Notes under the pieces: model-generated
The model's database searches: none
Told to the model about the DNA's origin: nothing
What the model saw: only the letters and a program-made list of their open reading frames with translations
Translations under genes and position numbers: made by a program
Assembly: GCA_039589315.1 (NCBI GenBank)
Contig: JBDHHQ010000004.1
Coordinates: 1-64,000, forward strand
From: Gemmatimonadota bacterium
GTDB lineage: Bacteria > Gemmatimonadota > Gemmatimonadetes > Longimicrobiales > Gaopeijiaceae
Direction of reading: 5' to 3'
DNA: 64,000 nucleotides
Part shown: positions 11,037 through 33,858 of the stretch, in pieces
Layout: the number at the start of each line of letters is the position of its first letter
Numbering within the stretch: the first letter of the stretch is position 1

Positions 11037-13508
11037 TCAGTTGATATACCCCAACGACCGCAGCGTCTGTAGCTGCTCGGCCGTCAGGAGCGTCTCGCCC
11101 CCGCTGGTGAACCGCTGCGCCAGCGCCATGTGGGCCTCGAACTGCCGTTCAAGGAGCTCCGTGTACTTCTCCACCAGGTCGGGGTGCTCCTCGTGGACGC
11201 TCCACAGGCTGTACGGATCGTTCCAAAGGTCGTACAGGAGCAGCGGGACGGGCCGGCGTTGTTCTTCCGGTTGCTCCGGGTCGGCGTTGATCTGGAGCGA
11301 GGCTCCCCAGCGGCCGTCGACCATCTCGATCCGGCCCCGGTAGTCACCCGTCTCCTTATCGAGCACGAACTCGTCGAGGATCACCGGCCTCGGCTCCCAT
11401 CCCGGTTGGCCCAGCATCAGGGGCGCCAGGGACTGGCCCATGGCCACCTCCGGCCCGGGCAGGTCGAGCAGGTCGAGCATGGTGGGTAGCACGTCGATCA
11501 TCGACACCGGCTCGGCGAAGCGCTGGCCTGCCGGCAATCGTCCGTGCCAGACGAAGATCAGCGGCACCCGCGTGATGGTGGACCGGAGCATCGGATCGCT
11601 CCACCTGGGCGGCAGTGAGTCCTGGACTGCGACGCCCATGTCGTCCATCGCCGCGTCCGTGCTGTGATCGCCTCCGATGACCAGAAGCGTATTCTCCCAG
11701 GTACCCTCGGCCTTCAGCCGATCCACCAGGCGGCCGAGCTGATAGTCGTTGTGGGCCATGGTCTCGTCGTAGAGAGCCTGGTGGATGGCGAAGAACTTCT
11801 GCCGGTCCAGGCCCGACGCCTCCCACGCCTCGGAATAGACGCCATGATCGCCGAGGGGTTGCAGCGAGTCCTGCCACTCTCGCCACGTGGTCAACTGATC
11901 CGGACCCACGTAGAGACCCGAGAATGGCGCCGCCGCCGGGAAGTCCTCATGCACGTCGGTTGTCTGGAAGTGGACCCAGTACGGCTCACCCGGATAGGCC
12001 TCGCGCCAACGGAAGAACCCTTCGTGCAGGAAGCGGGACGATTCCGCATGCTTCTCGCCGCCGAAGTAGGTGAACTCCTCCCAGGTCTCCCGGAAGAAGT
12101 CGACATCACGGTGGAGACCGCTCAGAGTACCGGCGTTCGGATTGGCCACGAACACCCCCGTCTGGTAGCCGGCGCTGTGCATCATTTGCGCCATTGTCGG
12201 GGCATCGGCGGGCACCGGATCCATCCAATTGAGCCCGCCGAGGGCGCTGTGCTGGAGCCCGGTCATGAACGAGGCCGTGGACGGCTTGGTCCACGAGGCG
12301 TTGCTGTAGACCCGCTCGAAGACGACGCCCTCCGCTGCCAGAGCTTCCATGTTGGGGGTCGTACGCCGGGCGTAGCCGTACACGCTCATGAAGTCGGCGG
12401 CCGCACCGTCGATCACGTAGAACACGACGTTGGGACGGTCCGCGCTCCTCCCGGATCCGGACACGGTCGGCGATCCCCAGAGCGCGACCGCTCCCGCCCG
12501 GTCCGACTCGGTCTCTAACGCCAGGGTCACGGTACGGCCGGCGAAAGCCGACAGGTCGATCGTGCGCTGACCCCAACGCTCCGCTCCGCTGTACGCTTCC
12601 TCGAACAGAACAGCGGGCTCGCTCCCACCCGCGGTAACTACAACGCGAAACGTGACCGGCACATCGTCCCGCAGCACGCCGAGCCCCACGTCCAGGTGGC
12701 CTCCCGTTGGTACCGCCAGCTGGTACTCGACCTTCCCCGGAGCGTGCGTGAAGAGGGAGTTTCGGTACACGCGTTCCCTCACCTCGGAGCGAACCCCGTG
12801 CCCCGCGTCGACGTAACCGGCCTCCTTCGGCAGAAGCTGAATGGAGAGGATGTCGATGGATCCCGGCTCCTCCTCGGCGATGAACCAGAGCCCCAGCGCC
12901 TCCCATTCCTCAAAGCTCTGGCCTCCGGACCAGTCGAGTCTGAGCAGGTAGGATTGCACCGTCCCGTCGTCCACGACCTCGGCGACCTCTCCCAATCGTT
13001 GGAACGGCCCCATGAACGGCGGAGCCTCACCGCCCTCCTCCCTCAAGTTGAACCTCACTCCGAAGCTCTCGACTCCGCCGGTCGAGCGGGCGCGCACGAG
13101 CACGTGTGCCCAGTCCTGCGGGTCCCACCCGGGCACCTCCAGGTAGATCCCGCCGGAGGGATCCCCATTCGAGTTCCTGGTCTCCTCGGTCACCGTGAGC
13201 CGGAGAGCATCCTCCGCAAGCGCTAGCGTCGCGGGATCGACTTCAGGGTTCGACGGCGGGGCCGGCTTCCAGTCCGACAGGATCTCGTCGAACTGCCAGC
13301 TCACCGGTTCCGGAGCGTCAGCAGGCACCTCCGAACCCTGGACGGCGGCCTCGGCGAGATGCGCCTCCAGATGGAGCGGTGCGGTATCGGCGCGGAGGGT
13401 CGGGCCCGAGTCGGCAGCGACGCAACCGGCCATCGTGAAGGCAATGGCGGCGAGCGGCAGCGTGCGGCCCGGAGGAAGATTCCTTCGAACGAGGGGAGTG
13501 GCGAGCAT
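11037..13508 (-). CDS. Sulfatase-like hydrolase/transferase lipoprotein (Thr-type), paralog A
   Basis: Lipobox-like MAGC. RPNVVFYVIDG, TTPNMEALAAEG, SNASWTKPSTASFMTG, TDVHE, GDHS, RVPLIF, LYDLWNDP. Ends EQLQTLRSLGYIN. The ORF extension to 14294 is an antisense overlap. Confidence 0.88.
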   Translation of the reverse strand: MLATPLVRRNLPPGRTLPLAAIAFTMAGCVAADSGPTLRADTAPLHLEAHLAEAAVQGSEVPADAPEPVSWQFDEILSDWKPAPPSNPEVDPATLALAEDALRLTVTEETRNSNGDPSGGIYLEVPGWDPQDWAHVLVRARSTGGVESFGVRFNLREEGGEAPPFMGPFQRLGEVAEVVDDGTVQSYLLRLDWSGGQSFEEWEALGLWFIAEEEPGSIDILSIQLLPKEAGYVDAGHGVRSEVRERVYRNSLFTHAPGKVEYQLAVPTGGHLDVGLGVLRDDVPVTFRVVVTAGGSEPAVLFEEAYSGAERWGQRTIDLSAFAGRTVTLALETESDRAGAVALWGSPTVSGSGRSADRPNVVFYVIDGAAADFMSVYGYARRTTPNMEALAAEGVVFERVYSNASWTKPSTASFMTGLQHSALGGLNWMDPVPADAPTMAQMMHSAGYQTGVFVANPNAGTLSGLHRDVDFFRETWEEFTYFGGEKHAESSRFLHEGFFRWREAYPGEPYWVHFQTTDVHEDFPAAAPFSGLYVGPDQLTTWREWQDSLQPLGDHGVYSEAWEASGLDRQKFFAIHQALYDETMAHNDYQLGRLVDRLKAEGTWENTLLVIGGDHSTDAAMDDMGVAVQDSLPPRWSDPMLRSTITRVPLIFVWHGRLPAGQRFAEPVSMIDVLPTMLDLLDLPGPEVAMGQSLAPLMLGQPGWEPRPVILDEFVLDKETGDYRGRIEMVDGRWGASLQINADPEQPEEQRRPVPLLLYDLWNDPYSLWSVHEEHPDLVEKYTELLERQFEAHMALAQRFTSGGETLLTAEQLQTLRSLGYIN

Positions 13509-13634: not shown

Positions 13635-16067
13635 ATGCGTCCCACTCTGCTGGTTACCGGTCTTCTGGCGTGCATCTCCTGCGACGCGCCCGAGCCCGTC
13701 TCCCTTCGTCTCGTCGATCAGTTCGCGAACGCGAGCGTCGAAGGCAGCCCCCCAGCGGTCCAGCCCGAGCGCACCGAGTGGCGCTTCGACGGCGAGGGAA
13801 CGACCTCGGCACCCCACGAGCACACCGCGACGCTCGGCTGGAGAGCCATGAACGACATCGCCGGTCTTGCCGTCCGGGAAGGCATGCTCGTCGGCACCAC
13901 CGGCACGCTCCCCGTGCTCCACGCGGTGCGCCCGGACGACCTGGACGAGAACGACCTCCTCCACGCCATCGAGATCCGCATGCGGGTGTCCGAAGGCACG
14001 GAGATCGGTGTCACGTTCAACGGGGCGGAGGAGCCGGACGCCGAGTGGGCCCGGGATCGCATCGACCAGCTCCGAAGCCAGGTCCGCGCACCGCTGATCG
14101 CGGAGCTGACCCCGGGCGACGAGTTCCTGACCTACACGCTCAGGGAGGCCGGGTCCACCTTCCGCATCGGCAGCATGCGCAACATCCTCATCGAGCCGAC
14201 CGATGCCGAGGGAGCGCACTTCGAGATCGAGTCGATCCGCATCATCCCGGTGAAGGAGCACCTCGCGTCGGTGCCCTCGGGCCCGGGCTGGCACGGCTTG
14301 GCCGAGGTGTATTACGAGACCATCGTGAGCCGCTCGCCCGAGCGCGTAGTGTGGCAGCTCGATCTTCCATCCCGGCCTTGGCTGGATCTGGCCTACGGCA
14401 CGATCGAGGACGGTCCCGTGACGTTCGAGGTCACCATCGGCACCGGCGGCGCGGAGACGTCCGTTCTGAAGCGTACCGTCACCACGCCGCGCCGCTGGGA
14501 GACGTCCCGCCTCGATCTCTCCGCCTACGCGGCGAGCCCCGTGACCCTCACGCTGGCGCTCGACGCCGACAGCGACGGCCTGCTCGGGTACTGGGGCTCA
14601 CCCGTGATCCGGAACAGTGGTGCCATGCCGGAGCTGTCCGATGGCTCCGAGGACCGGGCAACGCTGCTCGACGGCGGCTCGGAGCGCCCGCAAGCCGTCA
14701 TCCTGTTCCTTGCGGACGCGCTGCGCCGCGACCACCTGCCTATGTACGGCTACGAGCGCAACACGACTCCGGTGCTGTCCAGGCTGGCGGACGAGGGGGT
14801 CGTGTTCCAGGACAACATCTCGCAGGGATCGTGGACCAAGGTCTCGGTCTCGTCGATCCTCACCTCCCTTTATCCCACCACGCATGGGATCACGGCGATC
14901 CCCGACCGCCTGCCGTCGTCCGCCACGACCCTCTCGGAGGCGTTTCGTGAGGCCGGGTTTGCCACGTGGCAATCCTCGTCGGTGGTGTTCTCGGGTAAGC
15001 TGACCAACCTGCACCAGGGCGTGGACGTTCTGCATGAGCGCGCATCGGTCGACGACCTGGGCCACAGCTCCAGCAAGACAGCGCGAACGTTCACGGACCG
15101 GTTCCTGGAGTGGCTCGGTGACCACCACGACATCCCCTTCTTCGCGTTCGTGCACGTGTTCGATCCGCACAGCCCCTTCGAGCCGTATCCGCCCTACGAC
15201 ACCGTGTGGGCATCGGCCGACGCAACCGCCGCTCACGAGGCGGACTGGGAGACGCTCCGAGACGCCGACCTACCCGCGAGCTTCTTGCCGACACAGAAGG
15301 AGCTGGACCAGGTCGGCATCGACGCCGACCGGTTCACGGCCCACGAAATCGACTGGTACGACGCCTCCATCCTCGCGATGGACGTCGAGATCGGCCGCAT
15401 CATGCAGCGTCTGGAGGAGCTCGGGCTCGCCGGCAAGACGTTGTTCGCGTTCATCAGCGACCACGGCGAGGAGTTCCTGGAGCACGGCAACCAATTCCAC
15501 GGGACCAGCACGTATGGCGAGATGATGAACGTCCCGCTGATGCTCTGGTGGCCCGGCGTGCTACCGGCCGGCACCGTCGTGCAGCAGACCACCGAATCGC
15601 TGGACCTGATGCCGACACTGCTCGAGTTGAGCGGCATCACACCTCCCGAGGGGGCGCAGGGCCAGAGCCTGATCCCACTCGTCGTCGACCCGGACGCGGT
15701 CTCCGACTTCGGAGCGATCCGTCGTGCGGCCTTCAGCGAGCGCGTGCGGCTGCCGGATCTGGAAATGCCGGAAGAGGACGACGTCGATTCGTTCGCGATC
15801 GTCCTGGACGGGTGGAAGCTCGTGCAGATCGTCGATCCCCCGGACGGGCGGTCGGAATACGAGCTCTACGACCACCAGAAAGACCCGCTGAACATGCACG
15901 ACGTCGCCGGCGACAACCTGGAGATCGTCGAGCGGCTCGCCCGCGAGCTCGAGACCTGGCGGGAATACGCGCTTGCCTCCCGTCCACCGCCCGACACCGA
16001 AGCGATCGAGGGCCTCGGCGCCGATGAGATCGCCCGGCTCCGGAGCCTGGGCTACATTAACGACTGA
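13635..16067 (+). CDS. Sulfatase-like hydrolase/transferase lipoprotein (Thr-type), paralog B
   Basis: RBS gggagg. MRPTLLVTGLLACISC lipobox-like. ADALRRDHL, SQGSWTKVSVSSILTS, FDPHSPF, SDHGEEF.EHG, ELYDHQKDP. Ends DEIARLRSLGYIND. Confidence 0.9.
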   Translation: MRPTLLVTGLLACISCDAPEPVSLRLVDQFANASVEGSPPAVQPERTEWRFDGEGTTSAPHEHTATLGWRAMNDIAGLAVREGMLVGTTGTLPVLHAVRPDDLDENDLLHAIEIRMRVSEGTEIGVTFNGAEEPDAEWARDRIDQLRSQVRAPLIAELTPGDEFLTYTLREAGSTFRIGSMRNILIEPTDAEGAHFEIESIRIIPVKEHLASVPSGPGWHGLAEVYYETIVSRSPERVVWQLDLPSRPWLDLAYGTIEDGPVTFEVTIGTGGAETSVLKRTVTTPRRWETSRLDLSAYAASPVTLTLALDADSDGLLGYWGSPVIRNSGAMPELSDGSEDRATLLDGGSERPQAVILFLADALRRDHLPMYGYERNTTPVLSRLADEGVVFQDNISQGSWTKVSVSSILTSLYPTTHGITAIPDRLPSSATTLSEAFREAGFATWQSSSVVFSGKLTNLHQGVDVLHERASVDDLGHSSSKTARTFTDRFLEWLGDHHDIPFFAFVHVFDPHSPFEPYPPYDTVWASADATAAHEADWETLRDADLPASFLPTQKELDQVGIDADRFTAHEIDWYDASILAMDVEIGRIMQRLEELGLAGKTLFAFISDHGEEFLEHGNQFHGTSTYGEMMNVPLMLWWPGVLPAGTVVQQTTESLDLMPTLLELSGITPPEGAQGQSLIPLVVDPDAVSDFGAIRRAAFSERVRLPDLEMPEEDDVDSFAIVLDGWKLVQIVDPPDGRSEYELYDHQKDPLNMHDVAGDNLEIVERLARELETWREYALASRPPPDTEAIEGLGADEIARLRSLGYIND

Positions 16068-16123: not shown

Positions 16124-16738
16124 TCAGCCGCGGTTGCGGTGGAGGCTCGGGTCGACCACGGCCGCCATGGCTTCCCAGTCGAGGTCCCGTCCGAGAAAGC
16201 CCCCGACGCGCCTGGCCTGTTCGACCCCGTCCTCGAGGACGTCATGGTACCGGACGTGGAGGGCGTCGAAGCAGGGGCGATGAGCGAGCATGCTCCTGGT
16301 GCGCGCGAGGTGATCGATGAACAGCTTCCGCATGCGCACGTCGTCCGTCTCCGTGGCCTCGCCTCGGTGGTCGAGCATCTTCGTCTGGGACAGCAGGACC
16401 TCGTCCAGGTCCCGCTGCATGAAGATGACCTTGTAGTTGAGCGTTGCAGGAAGATGCCGGATCAGAAACGCGATGATCTTGACCGCCCGCCCGCGTGCCT
16501 CGGCCAACCACGCCCTGTCCAGGTCATGCTCGAGCTGCTTGACGCGCTCCAGCTCGTAGTAGCCGAGAGGATTGCTCTCGTCCGCCGTGCGAAGACCGTC
16601 CGTCACGATCTCGACACCGCCCGCCTCCAGCATCTGCATCATCATGGAGGTGCCGGAGCGAGGCAGGCCGGACACCACGACGACCGGCCGCCCGTATCGG
16701 GCTCGGCGTATGGCGCGGCGTACGGTAGCCAAGGGCAT
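16124..16738 (-). CDS. PAPS-dependent sulfotransferase family protein (cytoplasmic)
   Basis: 5'-PSB loop VVVVSGLPRSGTSMMMQML, NPLGYYE, 3'-PB-like KVIFMQRDLDEVLLS, VRYHDVL, VDPSLHRNR. No signal peptide. Confidence 0.88.
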   Translation of the reverse strand: MPLATVRRAIRRARYGRPVVVVSGLPRSGTSMMMQMLEAGGVEIVTDGLRTADESNPLGYYELERVKQLEHDLDRAWLAEARGRAVKIIAFLIRHLPATLNYKVIFMQRDLDEVLLSQTKMLDHRGEATETDDVRMRKLFIDHLARTRSMLAHRPCFDALHVRYHDVLEDGVEQARRVGGFLGRDLDWEAMAAVVDPSLHRNRG

Positions 16739-16759: not shown

Positions 16760-19075
16760 GTGGCCAGTCGTCATGAAAGGAAGAATAACGCGGGGCGCGC
16801 CCTTTCCGCAGGGTTCCTGCGCTCGCGCCTCGCGTGCCGGGGGAGCGTTTCCGTCAAACTCACCGCTGTGCTGTTGGCCGTGGTCCTGCTGGCGGTGTCG
16901 CCCACCCCCGCCGCCGCATACGTGGGGCCCGGCGCCGGGTTCGTGTTCGTCACGTCGTTCCTGGTCATCCTCGTCACCGGCCTTGTCGCCTTCGTCTCAC
17001 TCCTGCTGTGGCCCTTCCGTGCGCTCTGGCGGTTGCTGCGACGGGCCACCCGGCCCAGACCGCGCATCAAGAGACTCGTCATCGTCGGCTTCGACGGCCA
17101 GGATCCGCGGCTGACGGACCGATTCATGGCCGAGGGCAAGCTCCCGAACTTCAAACGTCTGGCCGAGGACGGATGCTATCATCCGCTCCAGTCCACGTTC
17201 CCGTCGGTCTCACCGGTCGCCTGGTCGTCGTTCAGCACGGGGACGCACCCCGCGAAGCACAACATCTACGACTTCCTGGACCGGGATACGCGGACCTACC
17301 TGCCCGTGCTGTCGTCGACCCGCATCGCCGGTCCCGACCGGGTGCTAAGGATCGGCCGGTACCGCGTGCCGTTGGGCAAGCCGGATCTCCGGCTGCTCCG
17401 CAAGTCCCGCCCGTTCTGGTCGATCCTTGGGCAGCACCAGATCTGGAGCACCGTCCTGCGCGTCCCGATCACCTTCCCGCCCGACCGCTTCTACGGCGCC
17501 CAGCTCAGCGCCATGTGCGTGCCCGACCTGCTCGGCACCCAGGGCACCTTCACGCTGGTCACCACGCGGGATTCGCGGGAGGGGTTCAAGGAGGGCGGAA
17601 GGCGAGTGCGCCTGAGCCGGGAGAACGGGCGCCTGGAAGCTCGGCTGGAAGGTCCCGAGAACGAGCTGGTCGAGGGGGCCGGACCGATGTCGGTCCCGCT
17701 GGTGATCACCCCGAACGGCGACGGCAAGACCGCCCTCGTCGAGGTCGACGGCGCTTCTTACGACCTGCAGGTCGGTGAGCTGACGGACTGGGTGGACCTG
17801 AGCTTCCGGGCCGCACCGGGTATCAAGGTGCGCGGGATCTGCCGCATGATGCTCACGGAGACGGGCGACCATGTCTCGCTGTACGTCACCCCGATCAACC
17901 TGGATCCCGAACGGCCGGCCATGCCGATCTCGCATCCGTCCTATTACGCGATCTACCTGGCCAAGAAGCTGGGCAAGTACGCGACTCTGGGGCTCGCGGA
18001 AGACACCTGGGCGCTCAACGAAGGCGTGATCGACGACGCCACCTTCCTTCGCCAGACCTACGACATCGATCAGGAGCGCGAGGACATGTTCTTCGCGGCT
18101 CTGGACACGCTCCGGAAGGGCACGGTCGTGTGCGTGTTCGACGCGACCGACCGCATCCAGCACATGTTCTGGCGTTACCTGGAGGACGGGCATCCGGCAG
18201 CGCGCATGGGGGCCCCGGGCGCCGCTTCGGGTGCGGGGTCGGCCCGGGCGTCGGGCGGAAACGACGGTCCGGAGGCCAGCCACCGCGTTGGGGACGGAGG
18301 GCCGAAGGCCGACGACGCCGGCTCGAACGGCCGCCCCGGGGGAAAGCACGCCGACGCGATCCAAGAGCTGTACATCCACAACGACCAGATGGTGGGCCGA
18401 ATCCGCGAGCGGCTCCGGGCCGGTGACGTCCTGATGGTGCTGTCCGATCACGGCTTCACGTCGTTCCGGCGGGGCGTCAACCTGAACGCCTGGCTGCACG
18501 ATAACGGCTACCTGACGTTGAAGGACGGCGCGGACGGGCGGACGGAGTGGCTGCGCGAGGTGGATTGGTCCAGAACGCGAGCGTATGCCCTGGGCCTCAC
18601 GGGGCTCTACCTCAACATCGACGGCAGAGAAGCCCAGGGCACGGTTCGGCCCGGCGACGAGGCCCGGGAGCTCAAGGCCGCGCTCGTGGAGCGGCTGAGC
18701 GGCCTGCCCGACGACGACGTGGGCCACGTGGCGATCCGCGAGGCGTTCGACACGTCCGCGCTCTACGGGGGGGGACCGTACCTGCGCAACGCCCCCGACC
18801 TGCTGATCGGCTACGCCGAGGGCTACCGGGCATCGTGGGACGGCGCGACCGGCGTCGTCCACGGCCCGGTCATCGAGGACAACGTCAAGCCATGGAGCGG
18901 CGACCACTGCGTGGATCCGCGCGTCGTTCCGGGCGTGTTCTTCAGCGACCGGCCAATCGACCGCGACGATCCCGCCCTCATCGACATCGCCCCGACCGCT
19001 CTGTGGCTGTTCGGGCTCAGGCCACCGGCGCACATGGACGGGAAGCTCCTGTTCGACGAGGGAGCAGCCGAGTGA
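16760..19075 (+). CDS. Alkaline phosphatase family / type I phosphodiesterase-nucleotide pyrophosphatase-like protein 1 (membrane-anchored)
   Basis: LVIVGFDGQD, STFPSVSPVAWSSFSTG, HNIYDF, TDRIQHMFWR, VLSDHGF, DWSRTRAYALG, WSGDH, DIAPT. N-terminus PAAA-YVGPGAG followed by a TM helix. Start uncertain (GTG 16760 or 16868). Confidence 0.87.
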   Translation: MASRHERKNNAGRALSAGFLRSRLACRGSVSVKLTAVLLAVVLLAVSPTPAAAYVGPGAGFVFVTSFLVILVTGLVAFVSLLLWPFRALWRLLRRATRPRPRIKRLVIVGFDGQDPRLTDRFMAEGKLPNFKRLAEDGCYHPLQSTFPSVSPVAWSSFSTGTHPAKHNIYDFLDRDTRTYLPVLSSTRIAGPDRVLRIGRYRVPLGKPDLRLLRKSRPFWSILGQHQIWSTVLRVPITFPPDRFYGAQLSAMCVPDLLGTQGTFTLVTTRDSREGFKEGGRRVRLSRENGRLEARLEGPENELVEGAGPMSVPLVITPNGDGKTALVEVDGASYDLQVGELTDWVDLSFRAAPGIKVRGICRMMLTETGDHVSLYVTPINLDPERPAMPISHPSYYAIYLAKKLGKYATLGLAEDTWALNEGVIDDATFLRQTYDIDQEREDMFFAALDTLRKGTVVCVFDATDRIQHMFWRYLEDGHPAARMGAPGAASGAGSARASGGNDGPEASHRVGDGGPKADDAGSNGRPGGKHADAIQELYIHNDQMVGRIRERLRAGDVLMVLSDHGFTSFRRGVNLNAWLHDNGYLTLKDGADGRTEWLREVDWSRTRAYALGLTGLYLNIDGREAQGTVRPGDEARELKAALVERLSGLPDDDVGHVAIREAFDTSALYGGGPYLRNAPDLLIGYAEGYRASWDGATGVVHGPVIEDNVKPWSGDHCVDPRVVPGVFFSDRPIDRDDPALIDIAPTALWLFGLRPPAHMDGKLLFDEGAAE

Positions 19076-21249
19076 AGGGCTCCCGAGCGCGGATGAACCC
19101 CTGTGCCCGCGTCGGGCCGATCCGGGACAGACGTGCGCGATCGAACGCTCGTGTCAGCAGCGGTGCGTTCCAGCGCATTGGGCCCAGGCTGGTGCCTGCC
19201 CGTGGCGCGGCGCGCGTGCCGCGGACTACCCGCGCAGTCCTGACAGCCTTCACCCTCGTCGGCGCCGTCCTGATCACAGCGTGCGCCGACCCCGAGCCCA
19301 TAGACACGACGGTGATCGTCCTCGGCTTCGACGGAATGGATTACGAGCTGACCCGCCGTCTCATGGCGGAAGGCCGGCTCCCGAATCTCGCGAGAATGGC
19401 CGAATCCGGGAGCTTCTCCCCGCTGGAGACCTCGATTCCGCCGCAGAGCCCGGTCGCGTGGTCGGACTTCATCACCGGATTGGACGCCGGAGGCCACGGC
19501 ATCTTCGACTTCCTTCACCGGGATCCAGCCACGATGGTGCCGTACCTGTCCACGACGATCACAGAGCCTCCCGGACGTACCCTCGAGATCGGCCGCTGGC
19601 AGATACCGCTAGGGGGCGGCGATGTCACGCTGATGCGGCAGGGCACTCCGTTCTGGGAGCTCCTCGAAGAGCGAGGCATCCCGACGACCATCGTTCGGAT
19701 GCCGGCCAACTTCCCACCTTCCGGCACGGCGGACCGGGAGCTCAGCGGGATGGGCACACCCGACATCCTGGGCGGCTACGGCACGTACACCTTGTTCACC
19801 ACTTCGCCCGAGCGATTCGCCAGCGCGACGGGTGGCGACGTGGTGCGGGCAGATGTCCGGCGCGGTGTCTTCCGTGGCAGCCTGAGGGGGCCTCCGAACC
19901 CGCTCTTGATCGAGCCCGAGGATCTCCGCTCCGAGTTCACCGCCTACCTGGACCCGGTCCGCCCCGTCGTGAAGCTCGTGATCGGCGACGAAGAGATCGT
20001 CCTGCAGGAGGGGGAGTGGAGCGATTGGGTTTCGGTCGAGTATCCCCTTCCCCTCTTCCAGAAGCTCGTGGGCACCGGCCGATTCTACCTCAAGCAGGTC
20101 CGGCCCGAGCTCCAGCTCTACGCCACCCCCGTCAACATCGACCCCGCCGATCCGGCGATGCCCATCTCGACGCCTCCGGACTTCGCGTCCGAGCTGGCGG
20201 CGGCGGGCGGGCGGTACTACACGCAAGGCTTTCCGGAGGACACCAACGCCCGAGCCGACGGCGTGTTCGACGAGGTGGACTTCCTGGCCCAGGCCCGGCT
20301 GGCGGCCGGCGAGATCGAGCAGCAGTACCGCTACCTGCTGGGAGGCTTCGACGGCGGATTGCTGTTCAACTATTTCGGATTCATCGACCAGGTGTCGCAC
20401 ATGATGTGGCGCGCCACCGATCCCGAGCACCCCGCCTACGACGCGGAGCGCGACGGACCCCACGCGGGGGTGATCGACGAGCTGTATGTGAAGGCGGACG
20501 AGATCGTCGGCGAGACGCTGGACCGCCTGGAAGTGACCGGAGGCACCCTGATCGTCATGTCCGACCACGGCTTCACGTCGTGGCGCCGCGGATTCAGCCT
20601 GAACGCCTGGCTCGAGCAGCACGGCTACCTCGCCGTTCGTGACCCGGGGCGTCGCGACATCGACTTCCTGCTGAACGTGGACTGGTCGCGAACGCAGGCG
20701 TACGGCTTGGGGCTCAGCGGGCTGTACCTCAACGTGGAGGGCCGGGAGGCCAACGGCATCGTGTCGGCCACGGAGGCCGGCATCGTGCTCGACGAGATCA
20801 CCCGAGGACTGCTGAGAGAGGTCGATCCCGCAACGGGAGAGCCGGCGGTCACGCGTGTGTACGGCCGAGACGCGACATACGAGGACGCCGGTCAGCTCGC
20901 GATCGGCCCGGACCTGGTCATCGGCTTCGCGAAGGGCGTGCGTAGCTCCGACGCGTCGGCGGCCGGCGAGGTCCCGGCCGAGGTGTTCGCCGACAATACG
21001 GGCGCCTGGAGCGGCGACCACATCATGGATCACGAGACCGTCCCCGGCGTGCTTCTGTCGAGCAGGCCGCTACGGACGGCAGCGCCGTCGCTGAGGGGGT
21101 TGGCGGCGGCAGTGCTGGCCGAGTTCGAGGTCGAGGGATTCCCCGGCTCCGCCCCGCCAGCCGACGTCGCAGCCAGGGGACCGGGGTCGAATCATCAACC
21201 GCTGGATCGGGGTCCACCGCGGGCAGTGGTATCGGGACCCAATCGCTAG
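19072..21249 (+). CDS. Alkaline phosphatase family / phosphodiesterase-like protein 2 (putative lipoprotein)
   Basis: GTG overlaps the upstream TGA (GTGA). VLITAC lipobox-like, VIVLGFDGMD, PPQSPVAWSDFITG, HGIFDF, DQVSHMMWR, MSDHGF, DWSRTQAYGLG, WSGDH. Clear paralog of the preceding gene. Confidence 0.87.
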   Translation: MKGSRARMNPCARVGPIRDRRARSNARVSSGAFQRIGPRLVPARGAARVPRTTRAVLTAFTLVGAVLITACADPEPIDTTVIVLGFDGMDYELTRRLMAEGRLPNLARMAESGSFSPLETSIPPQSPVAWSDFITGLDAGGHGIFDFLHRDPATMVPYLSTTITEPPGRTLEIGRWQIPLGGGDVTLMRQGTPFWELLEERGIPTTIVRMPANFPPSGTADRELSGMGTPDILGGYGTYTLFTTSPERFASATGGDVVRADVRRGVFRGSLRGPPNPLLIEPEDLRSEFTAYLDPVRPVVKLVIGDEEIVLQEGEWSDWVSVEYPLPLFQKLVGTGRFYLKQVRPELQLYATPVNIDPADPAMPISTPPDFASELAAAGGRYYTQGFPEDTNARADGVFDEVDFLAQARLAAGEIEQQYRYLLGGFDGGLLFNYFGFIDQVSHMMWRATDPEHPAYDAERDGPHAGVIDELYVKADEIVGETLDRLEVTGGTLIVMSDHGFTSWRRGFSLNAWLEQHGYLAVRDPGRRDIDFLLNVDWSRTQAYGLGLSGLYLNVEGREANGIVSATEAGIVLDEITRGLLREVDPATGEPAVTRVYGRDATYEDAGQLAIGPDLVIGFAKGVRSSDASAAGEVPAEVFADNTGAWSGDHIMDHETVPGVLLSSRPLRTAAPSLRGLAAAVLAEFEVEGFPGSAPPADVAARGPGSNHQPLDRGPPRAVVSGPNR

Positions 21250-21271: not shown

Positions 21272-21463
21272 GTGTTCGGTTCGAAGGTGAAGCTGGACAA
21301 GAGCCTGTTGAAGCGCGTCGAGAAGTTCTCCCGCATCGCGGGATACTCGTCGCCGGCGGAGTTCATCACCCACGCCGTCGAACGGGAGCTGGCACTCCTC
21401 GAGGACGCCGAGTCCGAGGAGGAGATCCGCAAGCGGCTGCAAGGCCTCGGATACATCTCTTGA
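21272..21463 (+). CDS. Small ribbon-helix-helix (CopG/MetJ-like) protein with C-terminal EEEIRKRLQGLGYIS motif
   Basis: RBS aaggaggag 6 nt before GTG. Beta-alpha-alpha pattern KVKLDKSLLKRVEKFSRIAGYSSPAEFITHAVEREL. Stop overlaps the next start (TTGA). Confidence 0.8.
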   Translation: MFGSKVKLDKSLLKRVEKFSRIAGYSSPAEFITHAVERELALLEDAESEEEIRKRLQGLGYIS

Positions 21464-22299
21464 TCTGGACCCTCAACCGGGCCCTGGGCGGCTTCTTCAA
21501 CCTGCTGCTCTACCCGTTCCGGGGCTTTCCGGCCATCGTGGGCCTGACCGTGATCTCGCTGGTGGTCAGCGTGGCGATGCTGATCGGTTTCAAAGCCACG
21601 TCCGACCAGGAGGCGCTCGCCGAGGTCAAACGGCACATCCACGCGGGTGTGTTCGAGATCCGTCTGTTCAAGGACGACTTCCGCGCGATCCTCTCGGCCC
21701 AGATCGGAATCCTCCGCCACACCTTCACGTATTTCCGGCTCTCCATGGTTCCGATGTTGTGGATGCTGGTGCCGATCGTGATCGTGGTCATCCAACTCCA
21801 GTTCCAGTACGGGTATGAGGGGCTCGAGTCCGGCGAGAGCGCGCTCGTGACCGCGACGTTCACGGAAGAAGGCGCGGGCGCCGTGGGCGATGCCGGAGCC
21901 GATATCTCCCTGGAAGCCCCCGCAGGCGTGCGGGTCGAGACCCCGCTGCTGTGGATCCCCTCGCTGCGGGAAGCGGGCTGGAGGATCGTCGCCGACGAGC
22001 CCGGCGAGTACGAGCTGGTGCTGCGGGTTGGCGAGACCAATCTCACCAAGAGCGTGCGCGTGGCCGACGGCGTGCTGATCAGGTCTCCTGTTCGCCCGTC
22101 GAGGGGCCTTGTCGATCAGCTCGTGTGGCCGGCGGAAGCACCGGTGCCGAGCACATCACCGGTCAGACGGATCGAGCTCTCCTATGCCGATGCCGAGGTC
22201 AGTCTGTTCGGATGGGGCATGCACTGGCTCATCGCCTTCTTCATCCTGACCATGGTCTTCGCCTTCGCGCTGCAGCGGCCGATGAACGTCAAGCTGTAG
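21460..22299 (+). CDS. 3-TM membrane protein resembling DUF106/EMC3/TMCO1 (Oxa1 superfamily) with an extracytoplasmic beta-rich insert
   Basis: Amphipathic N-helix, TM1 (IVGLTVISLVVSVAMLIGF), SDQEALAEVKRHI helical hairpin, TM2 (SMVPMLWMLVPIVIVV), ~130 aa soluble domain, TM3 (WLIAFFILTMVFAFALQRPMNV). The ORF is solid; the family call is by pattern only. Confidence 0.7.
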   Translation: MIWTLNRALGGFFNLLLYPFRGFPAIVGLTVISLVVSVAMLIGFKATSDQEALAEVKRHIHAGVFEIRLFKDDFRAILSAQIGILRHTFTYFRLSMVPMLWMLVPIVIVVIQLQFQYGYEGLESGESALVTATFTEEGAGAVGDAGADISLEAPAGVRVETPLLWIPSLREAGWRIVADEPGEYELVLRVGETNLTKSVRVADGVLIRSPVRPSRGLVDQLVWPAEAPVPSTSPVRRIELSYADAEVSLFGWGMHWLIAFFILTMVFAFALQRPMNVKL

Positions 22300-22314: not shown

Positions 22315-24885
22315 TCAGTGGATGTAGCCCAACGACCTGAGGGTCTGGAGCTGTTCCGGCGTCAGGGGCAGGCCCTCTCCGGAGCGGGTGAATCTCTGAG
22401 CCAACGCCTGGTGCGCCTCCCACTGCGCCTCGAGGAACGCGGTGTACTGCTCCATCAGGTCGGGCCGTTCCTCGTGCAGGCTGTGTGAGAGATTCGGGTC
22501 GGTCCACAGATCGAAGAGAAGCAATCGAGCAGCTCGGCCGCCTTCTTCTTGTGGGAATGGGTCCCGGTTTACCAGGAGCGACGCACCCCAGCGGCCGTCG
22601 ACCACACCGATGCGCCCGAAGAGCGTGTCCGATTTGAACGAGGCGTAGAACTCGTCGAAGATGACGGGACGCGGCTCCCAACCCCCTTGCCCGAGCAGCA
22701 GTGGCGCCAGGGACTGGCCTTGCGTGATCTCGGGAATGGGCAATCCAGCCAGGTCGACGATGGTCGGGACCACGTCGATCATCGACACCGGCTGGCTGAA
22801 TCGCTGTCCGGCAGCAATGCGGGCAGGCCAGACCACAATCAGCGGGATGCGGGATTCCCACGGGCTGAAGATCGCCTGATCCTCCCAGAAGGGGGCCGAC
22901 ATCGAGGCGAGGCTGGGAAGGCCAGCATTGTCGTGGCTGTGATCCGCCGCGACGATGAAGATCGTGTTCTCCCACTCGCCAGCCGCTTTGATCCGGTCGA
23001 CCAGCCGACCGATCTGGTAGTCGTTGTGGGCCATCCCCTCGTCGTAGAGTCCCTGGGCCACGCTGATGTACTCCAGTGCGTCGATATCCGCCCCCGCGAG
23101 GGCGGCCAACCAGGGCTCGTCCCAGGACCCCACTTCTTCCATCCGTGCTTGCCAAGCGGAGAGGCGCTGTGGTGCATCGACGTTGCCGAAGAGACCGGCG
23201 AAGGGCGCCGCCGGGTGCCAAGGCTGGTGCACGTCCACGCTCTGGAAATGAGCCCAGTACGGCTGTGCGGGGTACGCCTCCCGCCATTGCCAGAAGGCTT
23301 CGTGCAGCCACACCGATGATGCGGAGTGGCTGCTGCGCGGCCAGCAGGTGAATCCGTCCCAGGTATCGCGCAGGACGTCCACACCTCGATCGAGGGTGCT
23401 CATGGTGCCGGCGTACGGATTCGCTGTGAAGACGGCGGTCTGGTACCCGCCCCGGTGCATGTGCTCCGCCATGGTCACGGCCTGCTCCGGAAGCGGATCG
23501 GTACCGGTGAGGTATCCACCGAGCACACTGTGATGCAGCGAGGTCATGAACGAGGGCGTGGATGTCCTGGTCCAGGTGGAGTTGCTGTAGGCCTGTTCGA
23601 ACACCGCTCCCTCGGACGCGAGGCGCACGAGGTTGGGTGTCGTGTGGCGGTTGTAGCCATAGACGCTCATGAACTGCGCCGCGGCCCCATCGATGACGTA
23701 GAACACGACATTGGGCCGGTCCGCCCGGCTCGAGCCGCTCACGACTGGAGCCCCCCAGAGTGCAACGGTGCCGGGTGTCTCGGCGTCCGCCTGCAGCGCC
23801 AGCGTGACTTCCTGACCCGCGTATGTCGCCAGATCGACGGAGCGTTGAATCCACGCAGCCCGGTCGGCCACGGTCTCCTCCAGCAGGCCGTGTTCTTCTC
23901 CACGTGCTGCGGCCACCGTGACCTTGAAGTCGACCGGCGCGTCGTTACGAACCACAGCGAGACCGACGTCGAGGCGCCCACCGGGTGGCACGTGCACCGT
24001 ATAGGCGACCCGCCCGGGCGCGTGCGTGAACATCGTGCGCCGGCTCTCGTTGCTTCCGTCGGCCACAGTCATCACACCGAGTGGATCGCTCACGAAGGCT
24101 GCCGACGTGGAGACGGCCGTCACCGAGAGAATGTCGACATTGCCCGGTTCGTAGGTCTGGAACATCACCCCGACTCTACAGCACACGTCGCTCGCCATTC
24201 TGGTGGAGCCACTCCTGGCCCAGAGCTGTTCGAGGGGAAAAGGCAGCAGATAGCCCTGCACCGAACCATCCGCGATGATCGGCGTCGGTTCGCTGATCTC
24301 TTGAAACAACCCGGTGACGCCGTGGCGGGACTGGCTGTCATCGAGGCTGGCAGAGGAGACCGACACGACTCCCGCGCTCTCGGTGCGGGCCCGAACCATC
24401 AGGTGGGCCGGCCGCAGACGCAGCAGGCTGGGAGCGTCGATGTAGATGCCCGCACCGAACAGGCTCTCGTTCTCGATCGTGGGCACGCCGACCTCGGTCA
24501 CGCGGATGCGTAGCGCATCGTCTGCCCGTGTCGCTTCCCGCAGGTTGGGCGGCGCGATGAGGGAAAACGCCTTCCAATCGGGCTGAGGCTCGTCGAAGCG
24601 CCAGACGATGGTTTCGGGGCCGGCGACAGGCGGCTCGGATCCTTCGATCCTCGCGACGTCCAGATGCTCCTCGAGGTGGAGAGGCTTTTCGGCCGTCAGC
24701 ACGGCGGAGTCGGAGGGTGAGCCACGGCAACCCGCCAGGGCCAAGCTCGACACGAGGGCTGAAAGGCAAAGACCGGGTGCACGACCACGACTCGTGGCAC
24801 CTCCTCCGATTGGCGCGGCGCGGGTGGGCCGGGCCGGTCCTCGGGCATGTTGCCCCGACCATTCTTGGGAGCGCGGGCCGCTCAC
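22315..24885 (-). CDS. Sulfatase-like hydrolase/transferase lipoprotein (Thr-type), paralog C
   Basis: LALAGC lipobox. RPNVVFYVIDG, SNSTWTRTSTPSFMTS, VDVHQ, ADHS, LFDLWTDP. Ends EQLQTLRSLGYIH. GTG start overlaps the upstream stop. Confidence 0.88.
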   Translation of the reverse strand: MSGPRSQEWSGQHARGPARPTRAAPIGGGATSRGRAPGLCLSALVSSLALAGCRGSPSDSAVLTAEKPLHLEEHLDVARIEGSEPPVAGPETIVWRFDEPQPDWKAFSLIAPPNLREATRADDALRIRVTEVGVPTIENESLFGAGIYIDAPSLLRLRPAHLMVRARTESAGVVSVSSASLDDSQSRHGVTGLFQEISEPTPIIADGSVQGYLLPFPLEQLWARSGSTRMASDVCCRVGVMFQTYEPGNVDILSVTAVSTSAAFVSDPLGVMTVADGSNESRRTMFTHAPGRVAYTVHVPPGGRLDVGLAVVRNDAPVDFKVTVAAARGEEHGLLEETVADRAAWIQRSVDLATYAGQEVTLALQADAETPGTVALWGAPVVSGSSRADRPNVVFYVIDGAAAQFMSVYGYNRHTTPNLVRLASEGAVFEQAYSNSTWTRTSTPSFMTSLHHSVLGGYLTGTDPLPEQAVTMAEHMHRGGYQTAVFTANPYAGTMSTLDRGVDVLRDTWDGFTCWPRSSHSASSVWLHEAFWQWREAYPAQPYWAHFQSVDVHQPWHPAAPFAGLFGNVDAPQRLSAWQARMEEVGSWDEPWLAALAGADIDALEYISVAQGLYDEGMAHNDYQIGRLVDRIKAAGEWENTIFIVAADHSHDNAGLPSLASMSAPFWEDQAIFSPWESRIPLIVVWPARIAAGQRFSQPVSMIDVVPTIVDLAGLPIPEITQGQSLAPLLLGQGGWEPRPVIFDEFYASFKSDTLFGRIGVVDGRWGASLLVNRDPFPQEEGGRAARLLLFDLWTDPNLSHSLHEERPDLMEQYTAFLEAQWEAHQALAQRFTRSGEGLPLTPEQLQTLRSLGYIH

Positions 24886-27314
24886 CGGATGTACCCCAGC
24901 GACCGGAGGGTCCGCAACTGCTCCTCGGTCAATGCCGGGTTGTCGCCCGTCTGCGTGAACCGCTCGGCCAATCGAAGGTGTTGGGCCAACCGAGCCTCCA
25001 GGAATGCCGTGTACTCCTTGACAAGAGCCGGCCGCTCCTCATGCAGGCTTCGCAGCGCGTGCGGATCGCTCCACACGTCGTAGAGCAGCAGGGGCGGGGT
25101 CACGTCCGGCACACCATCGCGGAAGCGTGAACCCTCTGGTGGATAGTTACGATGCCCTCGAAGGTGGATCCAACCGTCAGGGCGCGGCGGTCCGACGTAG
25201 AGAGAGGCACCCCATCGCCCGTCGATCACCTCGATCTGGCCCAGCAGCTCGTCGTCTTCGAAGCGGAACTCGTCGAAGACCACGGGGCTCGGCTCCCACC
25301 CGTCCCGTCCCAGCAGGAGCGGTGCGAGAGATCGTCCCTGGGCGTATTCGGGGACCGGGAGGCCCAGGAGATCCAGAACCGTGGGGAGCACGTCGATCAT
25401 CGAGACGGGATCCATGAAACGCAGGCCCCCCGCGATCCGGCCGGGCCACACGAACATCAGGGGCACCCGGCTCTGGAAGGAGCTGAGCATCGCGCCTTCC
25501 CAGATGTCGGGGAGGGGGTCGGTCAGGCCCAGTCCGAAGTGCGTCGTACCGGCTTGGTGCCCATGATCCGACGCGATGATCAGAAGGGTATTCTCCCACT
25601 CGCCCTCTGCCTTCAGGCGACCCACGAACTGGCCGATGCGAGCGTCCTGCTGCGCCATGGTCTGGTCGTACGCCGCTCTCGCCAGGTCGAAGTAGGCGTA
25701 GCGATCCACACCCGCCGCCTCGAAGGCATCGGAATAGGGCGTTCCGACCCATCCCTGGCGGTCGAGGGCCGCGTCCCACGTCTCGAGTCTCTCCAGGTAT
25801 TCCGGGCTCACGTAGAGGCCCTCGAACGATGGGCCCATGTAGTCCGGGCCATGCACGTCCGTGGTCTGGAAGTGGACCCAATACGGCTCCCCCGGATAGG
25901 CCTCGCGCCAGCGCCAGAACTGCGCTTGGAGCTCGGCGGACGAGTTCGGGTCATAGGCCTCGCGCAGCACGTCCGAGCCTCGTCCGAGTCCAAGCGCCGT
26001 GCCAGCATTGGCATTGGTGGTGAACAGACCGGTTTGATAGCCGACGGCGTGCAGGTGCTCGGCCGCCGTCAGGGCTTCGTCGGGCAGGATCCTCGGACGT
26101 CTAACTCCGCCGATGGCGCTCGTGTGCAGCGACGTGAGAAAGGAAGGGGTGGAGCTGCCGGTCCATGACGAGTTGCTGTAGGCGTACTCGAAGACGGCGC
26201 CCTCCTCTGCCAATCGCTCCAGATTCGGGGTGGTCCGGCGGTTGTACCGGTACAGGCTCATGTGCTCGGGAGATGCGCCGTCGATCACGTAGAAGACCAC
26301 GTTGGGCCGACCCGAGTCGACCCGACCACTTACGGTCGGAGCCGCCCATAGACCCACTGTTCCGGGCGCTGCATCTACCGCCAGTGTCAGGGCGACCGTC
26401 TGCCCCGCCATGTGCGAGAGATCCACGCCGAGCTGGGCCCATTCGGTCGTCGCATCGTGCGTCTCGGTGGCGAGGCGCTGGACCCCACCCGCCTCGTCGG
26501 TTGCCGTGACCTCGAAGGTCACTGGCGTGTCTTCTCGGAGCACCCCCAACCCGACATCGAGGCGCCCCCCGTCGGGAACCTTCACACGGTATTCGAGGCT
26601 CGCTGGGGCGTGGACGAAGATGGAGCGTCGATGCTCGATGCCGCGCGCCACGGACCGCACTCCTGCGGGCTCGGTGGCGAACTCCGCGTCGATCGGTATC
26701 GCCCGGACGGACAGGACGTCTACGGTGGCAGTGCTATCCGCTCTGAGATGAACACCCAGCTCGGTCCACGGACTGCTCGGGACTCCGCGGATCTGCGCGA
26801 CTCGAAGCAGATAGGTGTGTGTGTCTCCGTCGGCTTGGAGGGGCACCGGGACGCTCCAGCCCTGCAACGGTCGTTCGTCTGTCGTGGTCAGGTTCATGCC
26901 GAGGGTTACTCGCATCCTCCGGCCGGTTGCCCGTAGCCGAAGCGCGATCGTCCCCCAGTCCGCCCGGTTCCATTCCGGAAGCCGCACGTTCAGGTCGACC
27001 GACCCGAATTCTTCTTCCCGAGCCTCGCGGTCGAAGGTGACTCGCAGGCCCTCCTCGGTCGCGGAAACTGAAGGGGACCCCGACGACGAGACGAGCCTCC
27101 AATCGGATTGGAGCCCCTCCGCCGCCCACTCCACGGGCTCGGTGACGCCGGCGGACAGATCGGAGCCTGTGAGTGTTGCGGCGCCGAGATGATCCTCGAG
27201 ATGCAGAGGCCCGTCGGCCGTGAGCATCTGGGATCCCGACTGCGAGTCGCAGCCCACGACGATTGCACTGAGCAGGCTGGCTGTGACGATTCCGGAACGG
27301 TGGCGGACGAACAT
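24882..27314 (-). CDS. Sulfatase-like hydrolase/transferase lipoprotein (Thr-type), paralog D
   Basis: AIVVGC lipobox. RPNVVFYVIDG, SNSSWTGSSTPSFLTS, TDVHG, SDHG, LYDVWSDP. Ends EEQLRTLRSLGYIR. Confidence 0.88.
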   Translation of the reverse strand: MFVRHRSGIVTASLLSAIVVGCDSQSGSQMLTADGPLHLEDHLGAATLTGSDLSAGVTEPVEWAAEGLQSDWRLVSSSGSPSVSATEEGLRVTFDREAREEEFGSVDLNVRLPEWNRADWGTIALRLRATGRRMRVTLGMNLTTTDERPLQGWSVPVPLQADGDTHTYLLRVAQIRGVPSSPWTELGVHLRADSTATVDVLSVRAIPIDAEFATEPAGVRSVARGIEHRRSIFVHAPASLEYRVKVPDGGRLDVGLGVLREDTPVTFEVTATDEAGGVQRLATETHDATTEWAQLGVDLSHMAGQTVALTLAVDAAPGTVGLWAAPTVSGRVDSGRPNVVFYVIDGASPEHMSLYRYNRRTTPNLERLAEEGAVFEYAYSNSSWTGSSTPSFLTSLHTSAIGGVRRPRILPDEALTAAEHLHAVGYQTGLFTTNANAGTALGLGRGSDVLREAYDPNSSAELQAQFWRWREAYPGEPYWVHFQTTDVHGPDYMGPSFEGLYVSPEYLERLETWDAALDRQGWVGTPYSDAFEAAGVDRYAYFDLARAAYDQTMAQQDARIGQFVGRLKAEGEWENTLLIIASDHGHQAGTTHFGLGLTDPLPDIWEGAMLSSFQSRVPLMFVWPGRIAGGLRFMDPVSMIDVLPTVLDLLGLPVPEYAQGRSLAPLLLGRDGWEPSPVVFDEFRFEDDELLGQIEVIDGRWGASLYVGPPRPDGWIHLRGHRNYPPEGSRFRDGVPDVTPPLLLYDVWSDPHALRSLHEERPALVKEYTAFLEARLAQHLRLAERFTQTGDNPALTEEQLRTLRSLGYIR

Positions 27315-27585
27315 GGCCGGACCCCGGCTTGTCCCGCTCCTTGAGGCTCGATTCCAGCATTGCCCAATGCCCCGGAGCAGATCTCCCTCGTGGGAGAGCA
27401 GCGAGTCCGGAGTGGGACAGTTTTGAATCGAGACTACGCCTCGATGATAGGGGCCTCGCTTTGCGAGCGCCACGATCATGGCGAGCCTCGACCGATTCCG
27501 CTCTCCGCCGCGAGCTCGCGGCTCACTGTGGGTCGCCAGTGGTCAGGTGGGCGGTCGGAGGGGTCGGTCGCGGAGCGGGCTACGC

Positions 27586-30784: not shown

Positions 30785-30801
30785 CGCGGGGAACGGGAGG
30801 A

Positions 30802-33844: not shown

Positions 33845-33858
33845 GGTTCTTCTCCTTA

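Follow-up and report, generated by a model that had tools for sequence, protein, structure and literature searches.

A strictly Tyr-tipped LxxLGY tail on sulfatase-like enzymes and on a small protein of a Gemmatimonadota gene cassette: a candidate arm of a sulfation system

Why would a 63-aa protein resembling a ribbon-helix-helix (RHH) regulator end in the same short peptide as the long sulfatase-like enzymes encoded around it? The question is raised by a 64,000-nucleotide stretch of DNA from a Gemmatimonadota bacterium (contig JBDHHQ010000004.1, positions 1 to 64,000), hereafter the window, in which the small gene follows two phosphodiesterase-like genes, PDE1 and PDE2, and precedes a membrane protein gene (Table 1). 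The long enzymes belong to the alkaline phosphatase (AlkP) superfamily. A six-frame scan of the window with the pattern [LM]xx[LM]GY[ILVM] gave five matches, each of them C-terminal and 1-2 residues ahead of a stop codon. The five LxxLGY C-termini quoted in the initial annotation were thereby borne out.

The genome (6.67 Mb, 288 contigs) contained 7336 coding-like open reading frames (ORFs). Among these, LxxLGY was found within three residues of the stop 11 times, against 0.44 expected from its internal rate. The Phe counterpart, LxxLGF, was terminal only once; internally it occurred 106 times, compared with 40 for LxxLGY. Ten of the 11 terminal matches were the small ORF and nine long AlkP paralogs, five of these lying on other contigs. 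The four long proteins of the window do carry the tail that had been reported for them but, being paralogs, they are not four independent occurrences. The canonical CSPNR and CAPSR paralogs of the same genome had no tail.

All four long window proteins matched PF00884 (E 4e-49 to 5e-30), with WTKPS, WTKVS, WTRTS and WTGSS in their nucleophile regions. Identity as formylglycine (S1) sulfatases was rejected because the nucleophile position is Thr and the C/S-x-P/A-x-R signature is absent; Thr without Arg was seen at this motif in nearly all of 120 homologs. These 120 sequences were homologs of the protein at 22315-24885, collected with a query from which the tail had been excluded. The tail was present in 116 of them, with Tyr at the tip in 116/116; three of the others were cut short and one had Trp for Gly. 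When solved sulfatases were compared with the same paralog, the best-scoring stretches ended by residue 836, ahead of the tail. A lipobox-like Cys was found in all nine tailed paralogs of the genome and, using a crude pattern, in 54 of 97 full-length homologs. The nine are therefore probably exported, which would place cytoplasmic 3′-phosphoadenosine 5′-phosphosulfate (PAPS) out of their reach and call for another donor. A Cys-type sulfatase gene (PF00884; 8907-10919, plus strand), whose product has an extra C-terminal domain and no tail, adjoins the cluster.

The small gene has a GTG start with an AGGAGG ribosome site just upstream, and its stop overlaps the TTG start of the next gene. Its product had 839 homologs at E <= 0.001. 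In all 120 close homologs listed from this set G58, L59, G60 and Y61 were invariant, Phe never occupied position 61, and the tail region ranked among the most conserved parts of the protein. Of 150 distant representatives drawn from 561 matches, 114 had the tail, in every case with a Tyr tip. Among the 36 lacking it under a relaxed pattern, nine had the tail region in another frame, one was an unrelated 3445-aa protein, one had Cys for Tyr, and the rest stopped or ran into unrelated sequence; most of the 36 were taken as assembly or gene-call artefacts. A 49-aa tail-less RHH duplicate that sits beside a tailed copy within a cassette (L128:2885-3034, minus strand) is real. Conservation of the tail and its Tyr among homologs of the small protein, a point on which the initial annotation had staked its proposal, was thus seen in the sequences.

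Constraint on the tail lies in the protein. In the 72 of 80 loci (described below) that could be parsed by pattern, L56, G58, L59, G60 and Y61 never changed while the tail codons varied synonymously, and the small-protein tail is selected at the protein level. A cause at the DNA level, namely overlap of the tail with the ribosome site of the next gene, was ruled out by the use of all four Gly codons and both Tyr codons, and by the gap to the next gene, which ranged from -4 to 190 bases. The structural Tyr25 was not fixed (Y in 102/108). In RHH relatives linked to the ATP sulfurylase gene, sat, this position was Phe and the tail Tyr was kept.

The initial annotation had further proposed that the tail is a portable functional module, and its range of hosts agreed with this. 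It ended at least six types of protein: RHH proteins, PF00884 lipoproteins, AlkP enzymes with several transmembrane (TM) helices, soluble PF01663 enzymes, adenosine 5′-phosphosulfate (APS) kinase and arylsulfotransferase. A tail-profile search detected APS kinases, AlkP enzymes or fragments of them, and RHH-type small proteins among the 120 matches listed of 176. We read 19 regions from four tail-rich genomes, plus two small loci. There, tails ended multi-TM AlkP enzymes in glycan clusters, soluble PF01663 enzymes, APS kinases, and RHH proteins beside Sat or CysC, with tailed RHH directly ahead of ATP sulfurylase. An APS kinase with an appended tail was read directly behind a tail-less PF01663 enzyme in three genomes, and the same layout was found by coordinates in two more. 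The tail of these kinases is an extra piece added past the native last helix. An internal LGY helix was also noticed in an ORF that is arylsulfotransferase-like by eye (L074:13889-14983, minus strand). Tail-rich genomes examined had 9 to 34 pattern matches each; in five cassette-bearing genomes there were 9-30, scattered over the genome. In five tail-rich genomes without a match to the membrane protein, the Tyr pattern was found 135 times (control 7) and the Phe pattern 10 times (control 10). The LxxLGY tail is a portable, strictly Tyr-tipped element, carried behind a variable linker by Thr/Ser-nucleophile AlkP enzymes and by proteins of the PAPS pathway.

The part of the small protein ahead of the tail had been called RHH-like, and the evidence for this fold was weak but consistent. 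No Pfam or NCBIfam model scored over its cut-off, the nearest being a NikR hidden Markov model (HMM; E 0.034) and PF07704 (E 0.044), both under it; a duplicated homolog, P0122, was over the cut-off of PF01402. The AlphaFold model (predicted local distance difference test, pLDDT, 90) had helices at 10-23, 28-44 and 49-59. The helices and the Gly turn were as expected, and the RHH strand was not formed in the monomer model. The top Foldseek rows were NikR, PutA52 and CopG (E 1-2, rmsd 1.2-1.8 over 38-45 residues), and the Atlas label was CopG-family. A search of PDB sequences gave one chance match only, and neither it, the tail profile nor the comparison with solved sulfatases turned up a solved structure in which a relevant protein bears the tail. 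In residues 5-44 the small protein seems to share the strand-helix-Gly turn-helix layout of the CopG/Arc/MetJ/NikR regulators. It differs from them in staying under all curated cut-offs, in carrying the LGY helix, in being encoded inside the operon and not at its head, and in the null result of the operator search given below.

Such a fold, together with a basic N-terminal part, would suit an ordinary RHH operon repressor, with a tail that is a convergent helix cap or tetramerisation helix unrelated to those of the enzymes. LxxLGY caps do occur in unrelated solved proteins, the tail profile finding weak look-alikes only (eS17, TamA POTRA and Era, E 0.18 or worse), and Pfam has no model that groups the tails into a family. 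However, a simple k-mer and palindrome count found no operator-like motif in 44 sulfotransferase-PDE1 intergenic regions. The tail is also among the most conserved parts of the small protein, it recurs on several unrelated folds in the same sulfate-linked clusters, and on APS kinase it is an addition past the native last helix. We regard the repressor explanation as very unlikely. The sole enriched element in the 44 divergent regions was the -10-like TATACTACA; TATACTACA/TATATTACA was common to the intergenic regions of L026, L027, L034, L061, L062 and others, and resembles overlapping -10 boxes.

Two characterised archaeal proteins connect the tail to sulfation. According to the accessible part of Zaretsky et al. 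2025 (PMC11980604), Halobacterium salinarum requires the AlkP-core "sulfatase-like" proteins Agl30 (VNG1056C) and Agl31 (VNG1057C) to sulfate its N-glycan, and the two are sufficient to bring about glycan sulfation in Haloferax volcanii. The gene-specific ends of the reverse cloning primers given there translate to HLEDLGYL for Agl30 and LEELGYT for Agl31 (7-8 terminal residues each), and the primer for the cluster-mate VNG1063H to KELGYIE. In the accessible text of that paper the tail is not mentioned and no donor or mechanism is given, the words "PAPS" and "tyrosine" occurring zero times in the main text. A further annotated sulfatase, Agl7 (HVO_2046) of H. volcanii, is reported to be needed for sugar sulfation (PMC3892788, accessible part); its primers lie outside the gene and do not cover the C-terminal end. 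Agl30 and Agl31 resemble the long window proteins in having an AlkP core annotated as sulfatase and a C-terminal LxxLGY. Unlike them, the window paralogs are bacterial lipoproteins of ~810 aa with a large N-terminal domain and no adjoining glycan cluster. When metagenome contigs were scanned with the Agl30 primer end, the gene was not found.

The small gene lies in a cassette. From 368 loci detected in species genomes we took the best 80, most of which bore the label Acidobacteriota or Gemmatimonadota and many of which were cut by contig ends. They shared one layout: a usually divergent sulfotransferase, PDE1, an optional PDE2, the small protein and the membrane protein. Over these 80 loci, which had been chosen by the small protein, the membrane protein was present in 78, PDE1 in 69, the sulfotransferase in 57 and PDE2 in 53. 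The sulfotransferase was not seen in L116 or L118. An EamA-type transporter family recurred in 17 of the 80 loci (e.g. L036:4883-5908), and could move PAPS, 3′-phosphoadenosine 5′-phosphate or an acceptor. The absence of the tail from the PF01663 enzymes upstream of the small gene, noted for the window, was confirmed there and extended to 0/60 complete PDE1 and 0/45 complete PDE2 sequences. Apparent PDE-RHH fusions (P0135, P0242) and "tailed PDE1" frames (L028, L042) have the look of read-through across frameshifts, and none was scored as a fusion.

Because the 80 loci were picked by the small protein, a two-sided search of 251 genomes of one phylum was added, with a PDE1 ortholog defined by 746 bits or more. 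PDE1 orthologs were detected in 70 genomes and the small protein in 69; 68 had both and 180 neither, one of the 180 being a genome flagged unpublished on which no conclusion depends by itself. The small protein was thus present in 68/70 genomes with a PDE1 ortholog and in 1/181 without, a count that, given the kinship among the genomes, stands for tight coupling and not for a P value. The three exceptions were a divergent tailed copy, a contig end and a shortened PDE1. The proposal that the small protein supplies the tail in trans to tail-less PDEs therefore holds as gene coupling for PDE1 orthologs, but it failed for distant single PDE paralogs, 7/9 of whose loci read had no tailed neighbour. 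Elsewhere in the window's genome (C145:1099-5139 and C34:4615-6237) there were more PF01663-like enzymes without the tail, and a Thr-type membrane AlkP enzyme likewise without it, none of them with a tailed neighbour. In another locus (L119:550-6779) an SxtJ-like membrane gene and a carbamoyltransferase were followed by a tail-less and tailed pair of PF01663-type genes; L120 had a similar pair and then a PF13469 sulfotransferase.

The near-constant pairing of tail-less PDE1 orthologs with a tailed protein is one of the points that would fit a non-covalent docking or oligomerisation helix within the same sulfation system. On that explanation the Tyr hydroxyl would form a hydrogen bond and carry nothing, and APS kinase, RHH regulators and AlkP enzymes would be held on a partner, for instance the tail-less NPP-like (nucleotide pyrophosphatase/phosphodiesterase-like) enzyme, for PAPS channelling or for coupling enzyme state to transcription. 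It would explain the tail on APS kinase and on the RHH protein without extra chemistry. The tail helix is amphipathic, with conserved Leu positions, as a docking helix could be. Oligomer-building C-terminal extensions are known in sulfatases of the alkaline phosphatase superfamily. Three TM-anchored PF01663-type chains (P0437, P0468, P0491) carried one LGY helix at each terminus, and two copies in one chain also count for docking. In P0468 four TM segments were found by threshold and a fifth is probable, which would put its two tail copies on opposite membrane faces. Docking alone leaves unexplained, however, why Phe is wholly excluded in unrelated hosts from different domains of life, and where the exported paralogs find a sulfate donor. 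From these sequence comparisons, docking seems a serious possibility, nearly as likely as a Tyr that carries sulfate.

The small gene is translationally coupled in the window to the membrane protein gene and adjoins it in 78/80 loci, which invites another explanation, that the tail is a sorting or insertion signal, read for example by this membrane protein. The protein belongs, from its profile and layout, to the Oxa1 superfamily. Its profile matched archaeal MJ0480 (PDB 5c8j) with E 2.2e-11, and PF01956 was matched by 7/59 members (best 3.8e-7). The model (pLDDT 96) had three core TM helices, the first two separated by a coiled coil. Whole-length structural rows included 7tut_8 (Z 8.9, rmsd 3.7, 134 aligned), YidC 3wo7 (Z 7.6, rmsd 7.7, 147) and EMC 6ww7_C (Z 7.2, rmsd 10.0, 122); taken by themselves, these rows are only middling for a helical protein. 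Foldseek returned Ig-like domain rows only, from the insert between TM2 and TM3. Like DUF106/Ylp1 (MJ0480), EMC3 and TMCO1, it has an amphipathic N-helix, TM1, a coiled coil, TM2 and TM3. It differs from them in being bacterial, in having a beta-sandwich between TM2 and TM3 and in being dedicated to the cassette; insertase activity is only putative.

Several observations weaken the sorting explanation, which the initial annotation had offered as one option. The tail was not confined to the free C-terminus of exported proteins, as a sorting signal would be: it is carried by soluble cytoplasmic proteins (RHH, APS kinase, Agl31) and by lipoproteins alike, and N-terminal and internal copies exist. 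The Agl30/31 constructs bore C-terminal tags and sulfation of the glycan was still seen (accessible part of PMC11980604), which means that the C-terminus need not be free. Of 151 genomes of the window's phylum, three had the membrane protein, and six without a match to it had 14-34 tail DNA-pattern matches each, a few of them duplicate or out of frame. We give the sorting signal slightly less credence even than the repressor.

The chemistry of the two PDEs bears on which group the tail might carry. Both have Ser at the nucleophile position and an NPP-type bimetal site (GFDG.D, PSVSP/PPQSP, D..QH/D..SH, SDHG, WSGDH) conserved in alignments, and their closest solved relatives include ENPP1, phosphonoacetate hydrolase and NPP. 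The Thr-type paralogs also matched EptA, CptA and LtaS HMMs weakly. Both features would suit an arm that carries or docks a phospho- or nucleotidyl group in place of sulfate, the AlkP enzymes being phosphodiester transferases like LtaS and EptA. Against this, the recurring neighbours and hosts are a sulfotransferase, Sat, CysC and arylsulfotransferase, and both characterised tailed enzymes add sulfate, as reported in the accessible part of PMC11980604. A phospho-group arm is improbable, if less so than a repressor or a sorting signal.

PDE1 is ordered as a signal peptide, a mature N-terminal YxGPGAG, one TM helix, a basic stretch and the catalytic domain. Its residues Y25, G27, P28, G29, A30 and G31 and its metal ligands were invariant in 55/55 sequences. 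AxA stood ahead of the Tyr in 45/57, and a mean of 8.4 Lys/Arg followed the TM helix, which points to a catalytic domain in the cytoplasm and an N-terminal Tyr that faces outward. YxGPGAG lies at 16919-16939 (plus strand) with its Tyr codon at 16919-16921, right after the predicted signal-peptide cleavage and before the TM helix; this second invariant Tyr could be an outward-facing carrier or a docking residue. PDE2 has a lipobox-like Cys23 that is at least 90% conserved (n=40) and is probably periplasmic, so PDE1 and PDE2 are predicted to lie on opposite membrane faces. A complex prediction that paired the tail peptide (34-63) with PDE1 residues 70-740 and two Zn, on an alignment of 55 rows, scored 0.13 and 0.02 against a mark of 0.32; with controls not folded, it speaks neither for nor against an interaction.

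We tentatively favour, at somewhat short of an even chance, a reading in which the LxxLGY helix is the tethered arm of an AlkP-fold sulfation system and its Tyr carries sulfate as a covalent aryl-sulfate intermediate. It is favoured because it best accounts for four things together: the exclusion of Phe, the hosts from the sulfate pathway, the variable linker, and exported enzymes that have no access to PAPS. The idea of the Tyr as a carrier, raised in the initial annotation, gains circumstantial support from the strictness of the Tyr, the tail on Agl30 and Agl31, and the link to PAPS genes. A further point in its favour is the setting of the genome's sole Sat-CysC fusion, which lies on another contig (C19:40965-42695, minus strand) among genes that by eye resemble nucleotide-sugar dehydrogenases and epimerases. 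In the scheme we propose, PAPS would be made in the cytoplasm by Sat-CysC. Tyr61 of the small protein, which would provide the tail that PDE1 is without, would then be loaded with sulfate by the cassette sulfotransferase, or by tail-less PDE1 via its Ser. In the most speculative step, PDE1, its outward N-terminal Tyr, the Oxa1-type protein and PDE2 would pass the group across the membrane. The exported Thr-type paralogs, scattered over the genome, would be charged on their own tail Tyr, and sulfate would go from there to the Thr and on to an acceptor in the envelope. Dimerisation of the arm would fall to the RHH part, which may also link the arm's state to transcription.

Taken in full, this would amount to an undescribed protein sulfate relay shared by bacteria and archaea, in which the LGY Tyr on a small RHH dimer is charged from PAPS, and a membrane-straddling NPP-like pair, an outward Tyr and a repurposed Oxa1-type protein carry the sulfate to the other side. 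There, beyond the reach of PAPS, mis-annotated "sulfatases", dozens of them in a genome, would sulfate envelope polymers from their own sulfotyrosine arm. We consider the relay in this complete form unlikely, though a good deal less so than a phospho-group arm.

Known systems offer partial parallels. In the accessible part of PMC12148441, the Tyr of DltX (as summarised there) and of the PatA C-terminal hexapeptide are acyl shuttles in MBOAT-SGNH systems that modify the envelope by moving an activated group out of the cytoplasm. As in the LGY tail, an invariant Tyr stands in a short C-terminal peptide that is either fused to an enzyme or stand-alone. The motif, the group and the folds differ (MBOAT/SGNH there, AlkP and Oxa1-like here), DltX is a membrane microprotein and the window's small protein is soluble, and the covalent adduct, shown there, is here inferred only. 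No MBOAT or SGNH partner was found among the cassette members (PF13469, PF01663, Oxa1-type) or the recurrent neighbours scanned. In caprazamycin biosynthesis, a PAPS-dependent sulfotransferase of the Cpz8/Cpz4 pair loads a phenolic shuttle, which in turn supplies an enzyme that does not depend on PAPS (PMC4257720, accessible part). This is likewise a two-step transfer by way of a phenolic sulfate, and arylsulfotransferase is also a host of the LGY tail; there, however, a small-molecule pyrone serves as the shuttle in place of a protein Tyr, and the second step falls to an arylsulfotransferase and not to an AlkP-fold protein. A literature search for trapped Ser-sulfate intermediates found no paper. 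Full-text literature and the accessible part of a 2024 review of polysaccharide sulfotransferases (PMC11625862) contained no description of either tail or cassette, in a search that did not extend to subscription papers or to most supplements. The tail and cassette are real and conserved, and apparently undescribed in print.

A number of points weigh against the Tyr-sulfate arm. Equal invariance would be expected of a Tyr that forms a hydrogen bond in a docking interface, and LxxLGY is commonly met as a helix cap. The normal substrates of NPP-type metal sites are phosphodiesters. The sulfotransferase, at 57/80 loci, is not a constant member of the cassette; in the window the cassette is not flanked by glycan genes and there is no evident sulfate acceptor. 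The six tail-rich genomes without the Oxa1-type protein imply that the cassette is not the only route serving tailed enzymes. APS kinase was present in only 7/9 tail-rich genomes compared with 64/151 overall, a modest enrichment. The Sat-CysC fusion ends in LEKQGYIG, a native last helix resembling the tail, from which the tail may derive or which it may mimic. Agl31 is cytosolic (accessible part of PMC11980604), so that one tailed sulfotransferase, at the least, does not need to span a membrane, and Agl30 and Agl31 are likened to the window enzymes by fold class and tail alone. The topologies given above come from motifs and hydropathy and not from a dedicated predictor.

Table 1. Positions of the tail and of the genes around it, counted from the first nucleotide of the window
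Feature	Position	Strand	Remarks
Thr-type AlkP "sulfatase-like" lipoprotein	11037..13508	-	tail 11040-11063; PF00884; WTKPS; lipobox-like Cys
Thr-type AlkP "sulfatase-like" lipoprotein	13635..16067	+	tail 16038-16064; PF00884; WTKVS; lipobox-like Cys
PAPS-type sulfotransferase (PF13469)	16124..16738	-	Pfam E 5.6e-13, over cut-off; divergent from cassette; no signal peptide seen
PDE1, tail-less NPP-like enzyme (PF01663)	16760..19075	+	start GTG 16760 or 16868
PDE2, tail-less NPP-like paralog, optional	19216..21249	+	start could be 19093
63-aa RHH-like protein, C-terminal LGY tail	21272..21463	+	residues 1-44 RHH-like; 49-59 tail helix
Tail of the small protein, EEEIRKRLQGLGYIS	21416..21460	+	Tyr61 codon 21452-21454
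Oxa1-superfamily (DUF106/EMC3/TMCO1-like) 3-TM protein	21460..22299	+	beta-sandwich insert; translationally coupled to small gene
Thr-type AlkP "sulfatase-like" lipoprotein	22315..24885	-	tail 22318-22341; PF00884; true start probably later than ORF start
Thr-type AlkP "sulfatase-like" lipoprotein	24882..27479	-	tail 24885-24908; PF00884; WTGSS; lipobox-like Cys; true start probably later
Tail pattern matches	11063(-), 16038(+), 21437(+), 22341(-), 24908(-)		

Past the cluster the window contains two convergent pairs of PadR and MacB/FtsX permease genes (27768-33964), which are ordinary for these bacteria. Genes for MoxR AAA, DUF58/vWA and DUF4381 proteins (51289-54346, minus strand) and, at 56181-63134, a hydantoinase A/B pair with two amidohydrolases bear no relation to the tail.

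At stake are the route by which AlkP-fold proteins, Agl30 and Agl31 among them, transfer sulfate and the donor that exported enzymes could use without PAPS; in the accessible part of PMC11980604 the mode of action is left for later work. Because the tail is shared and strictly Tyr-tipped, it offers a one-residue test in a tractable archaeon. If the Tyr does carry sulfate, a very large clade annotated as sulfatases and phosphodiesterases would make sulfate esters instead of breaking them down, with the tail as a simple marker for them, and the Tyr-shuttle principle would extend from acyl groups to sulfate. Even under docking, a conserved module would have been defined, together with a bacterial membrane protein of the DUF106 type.

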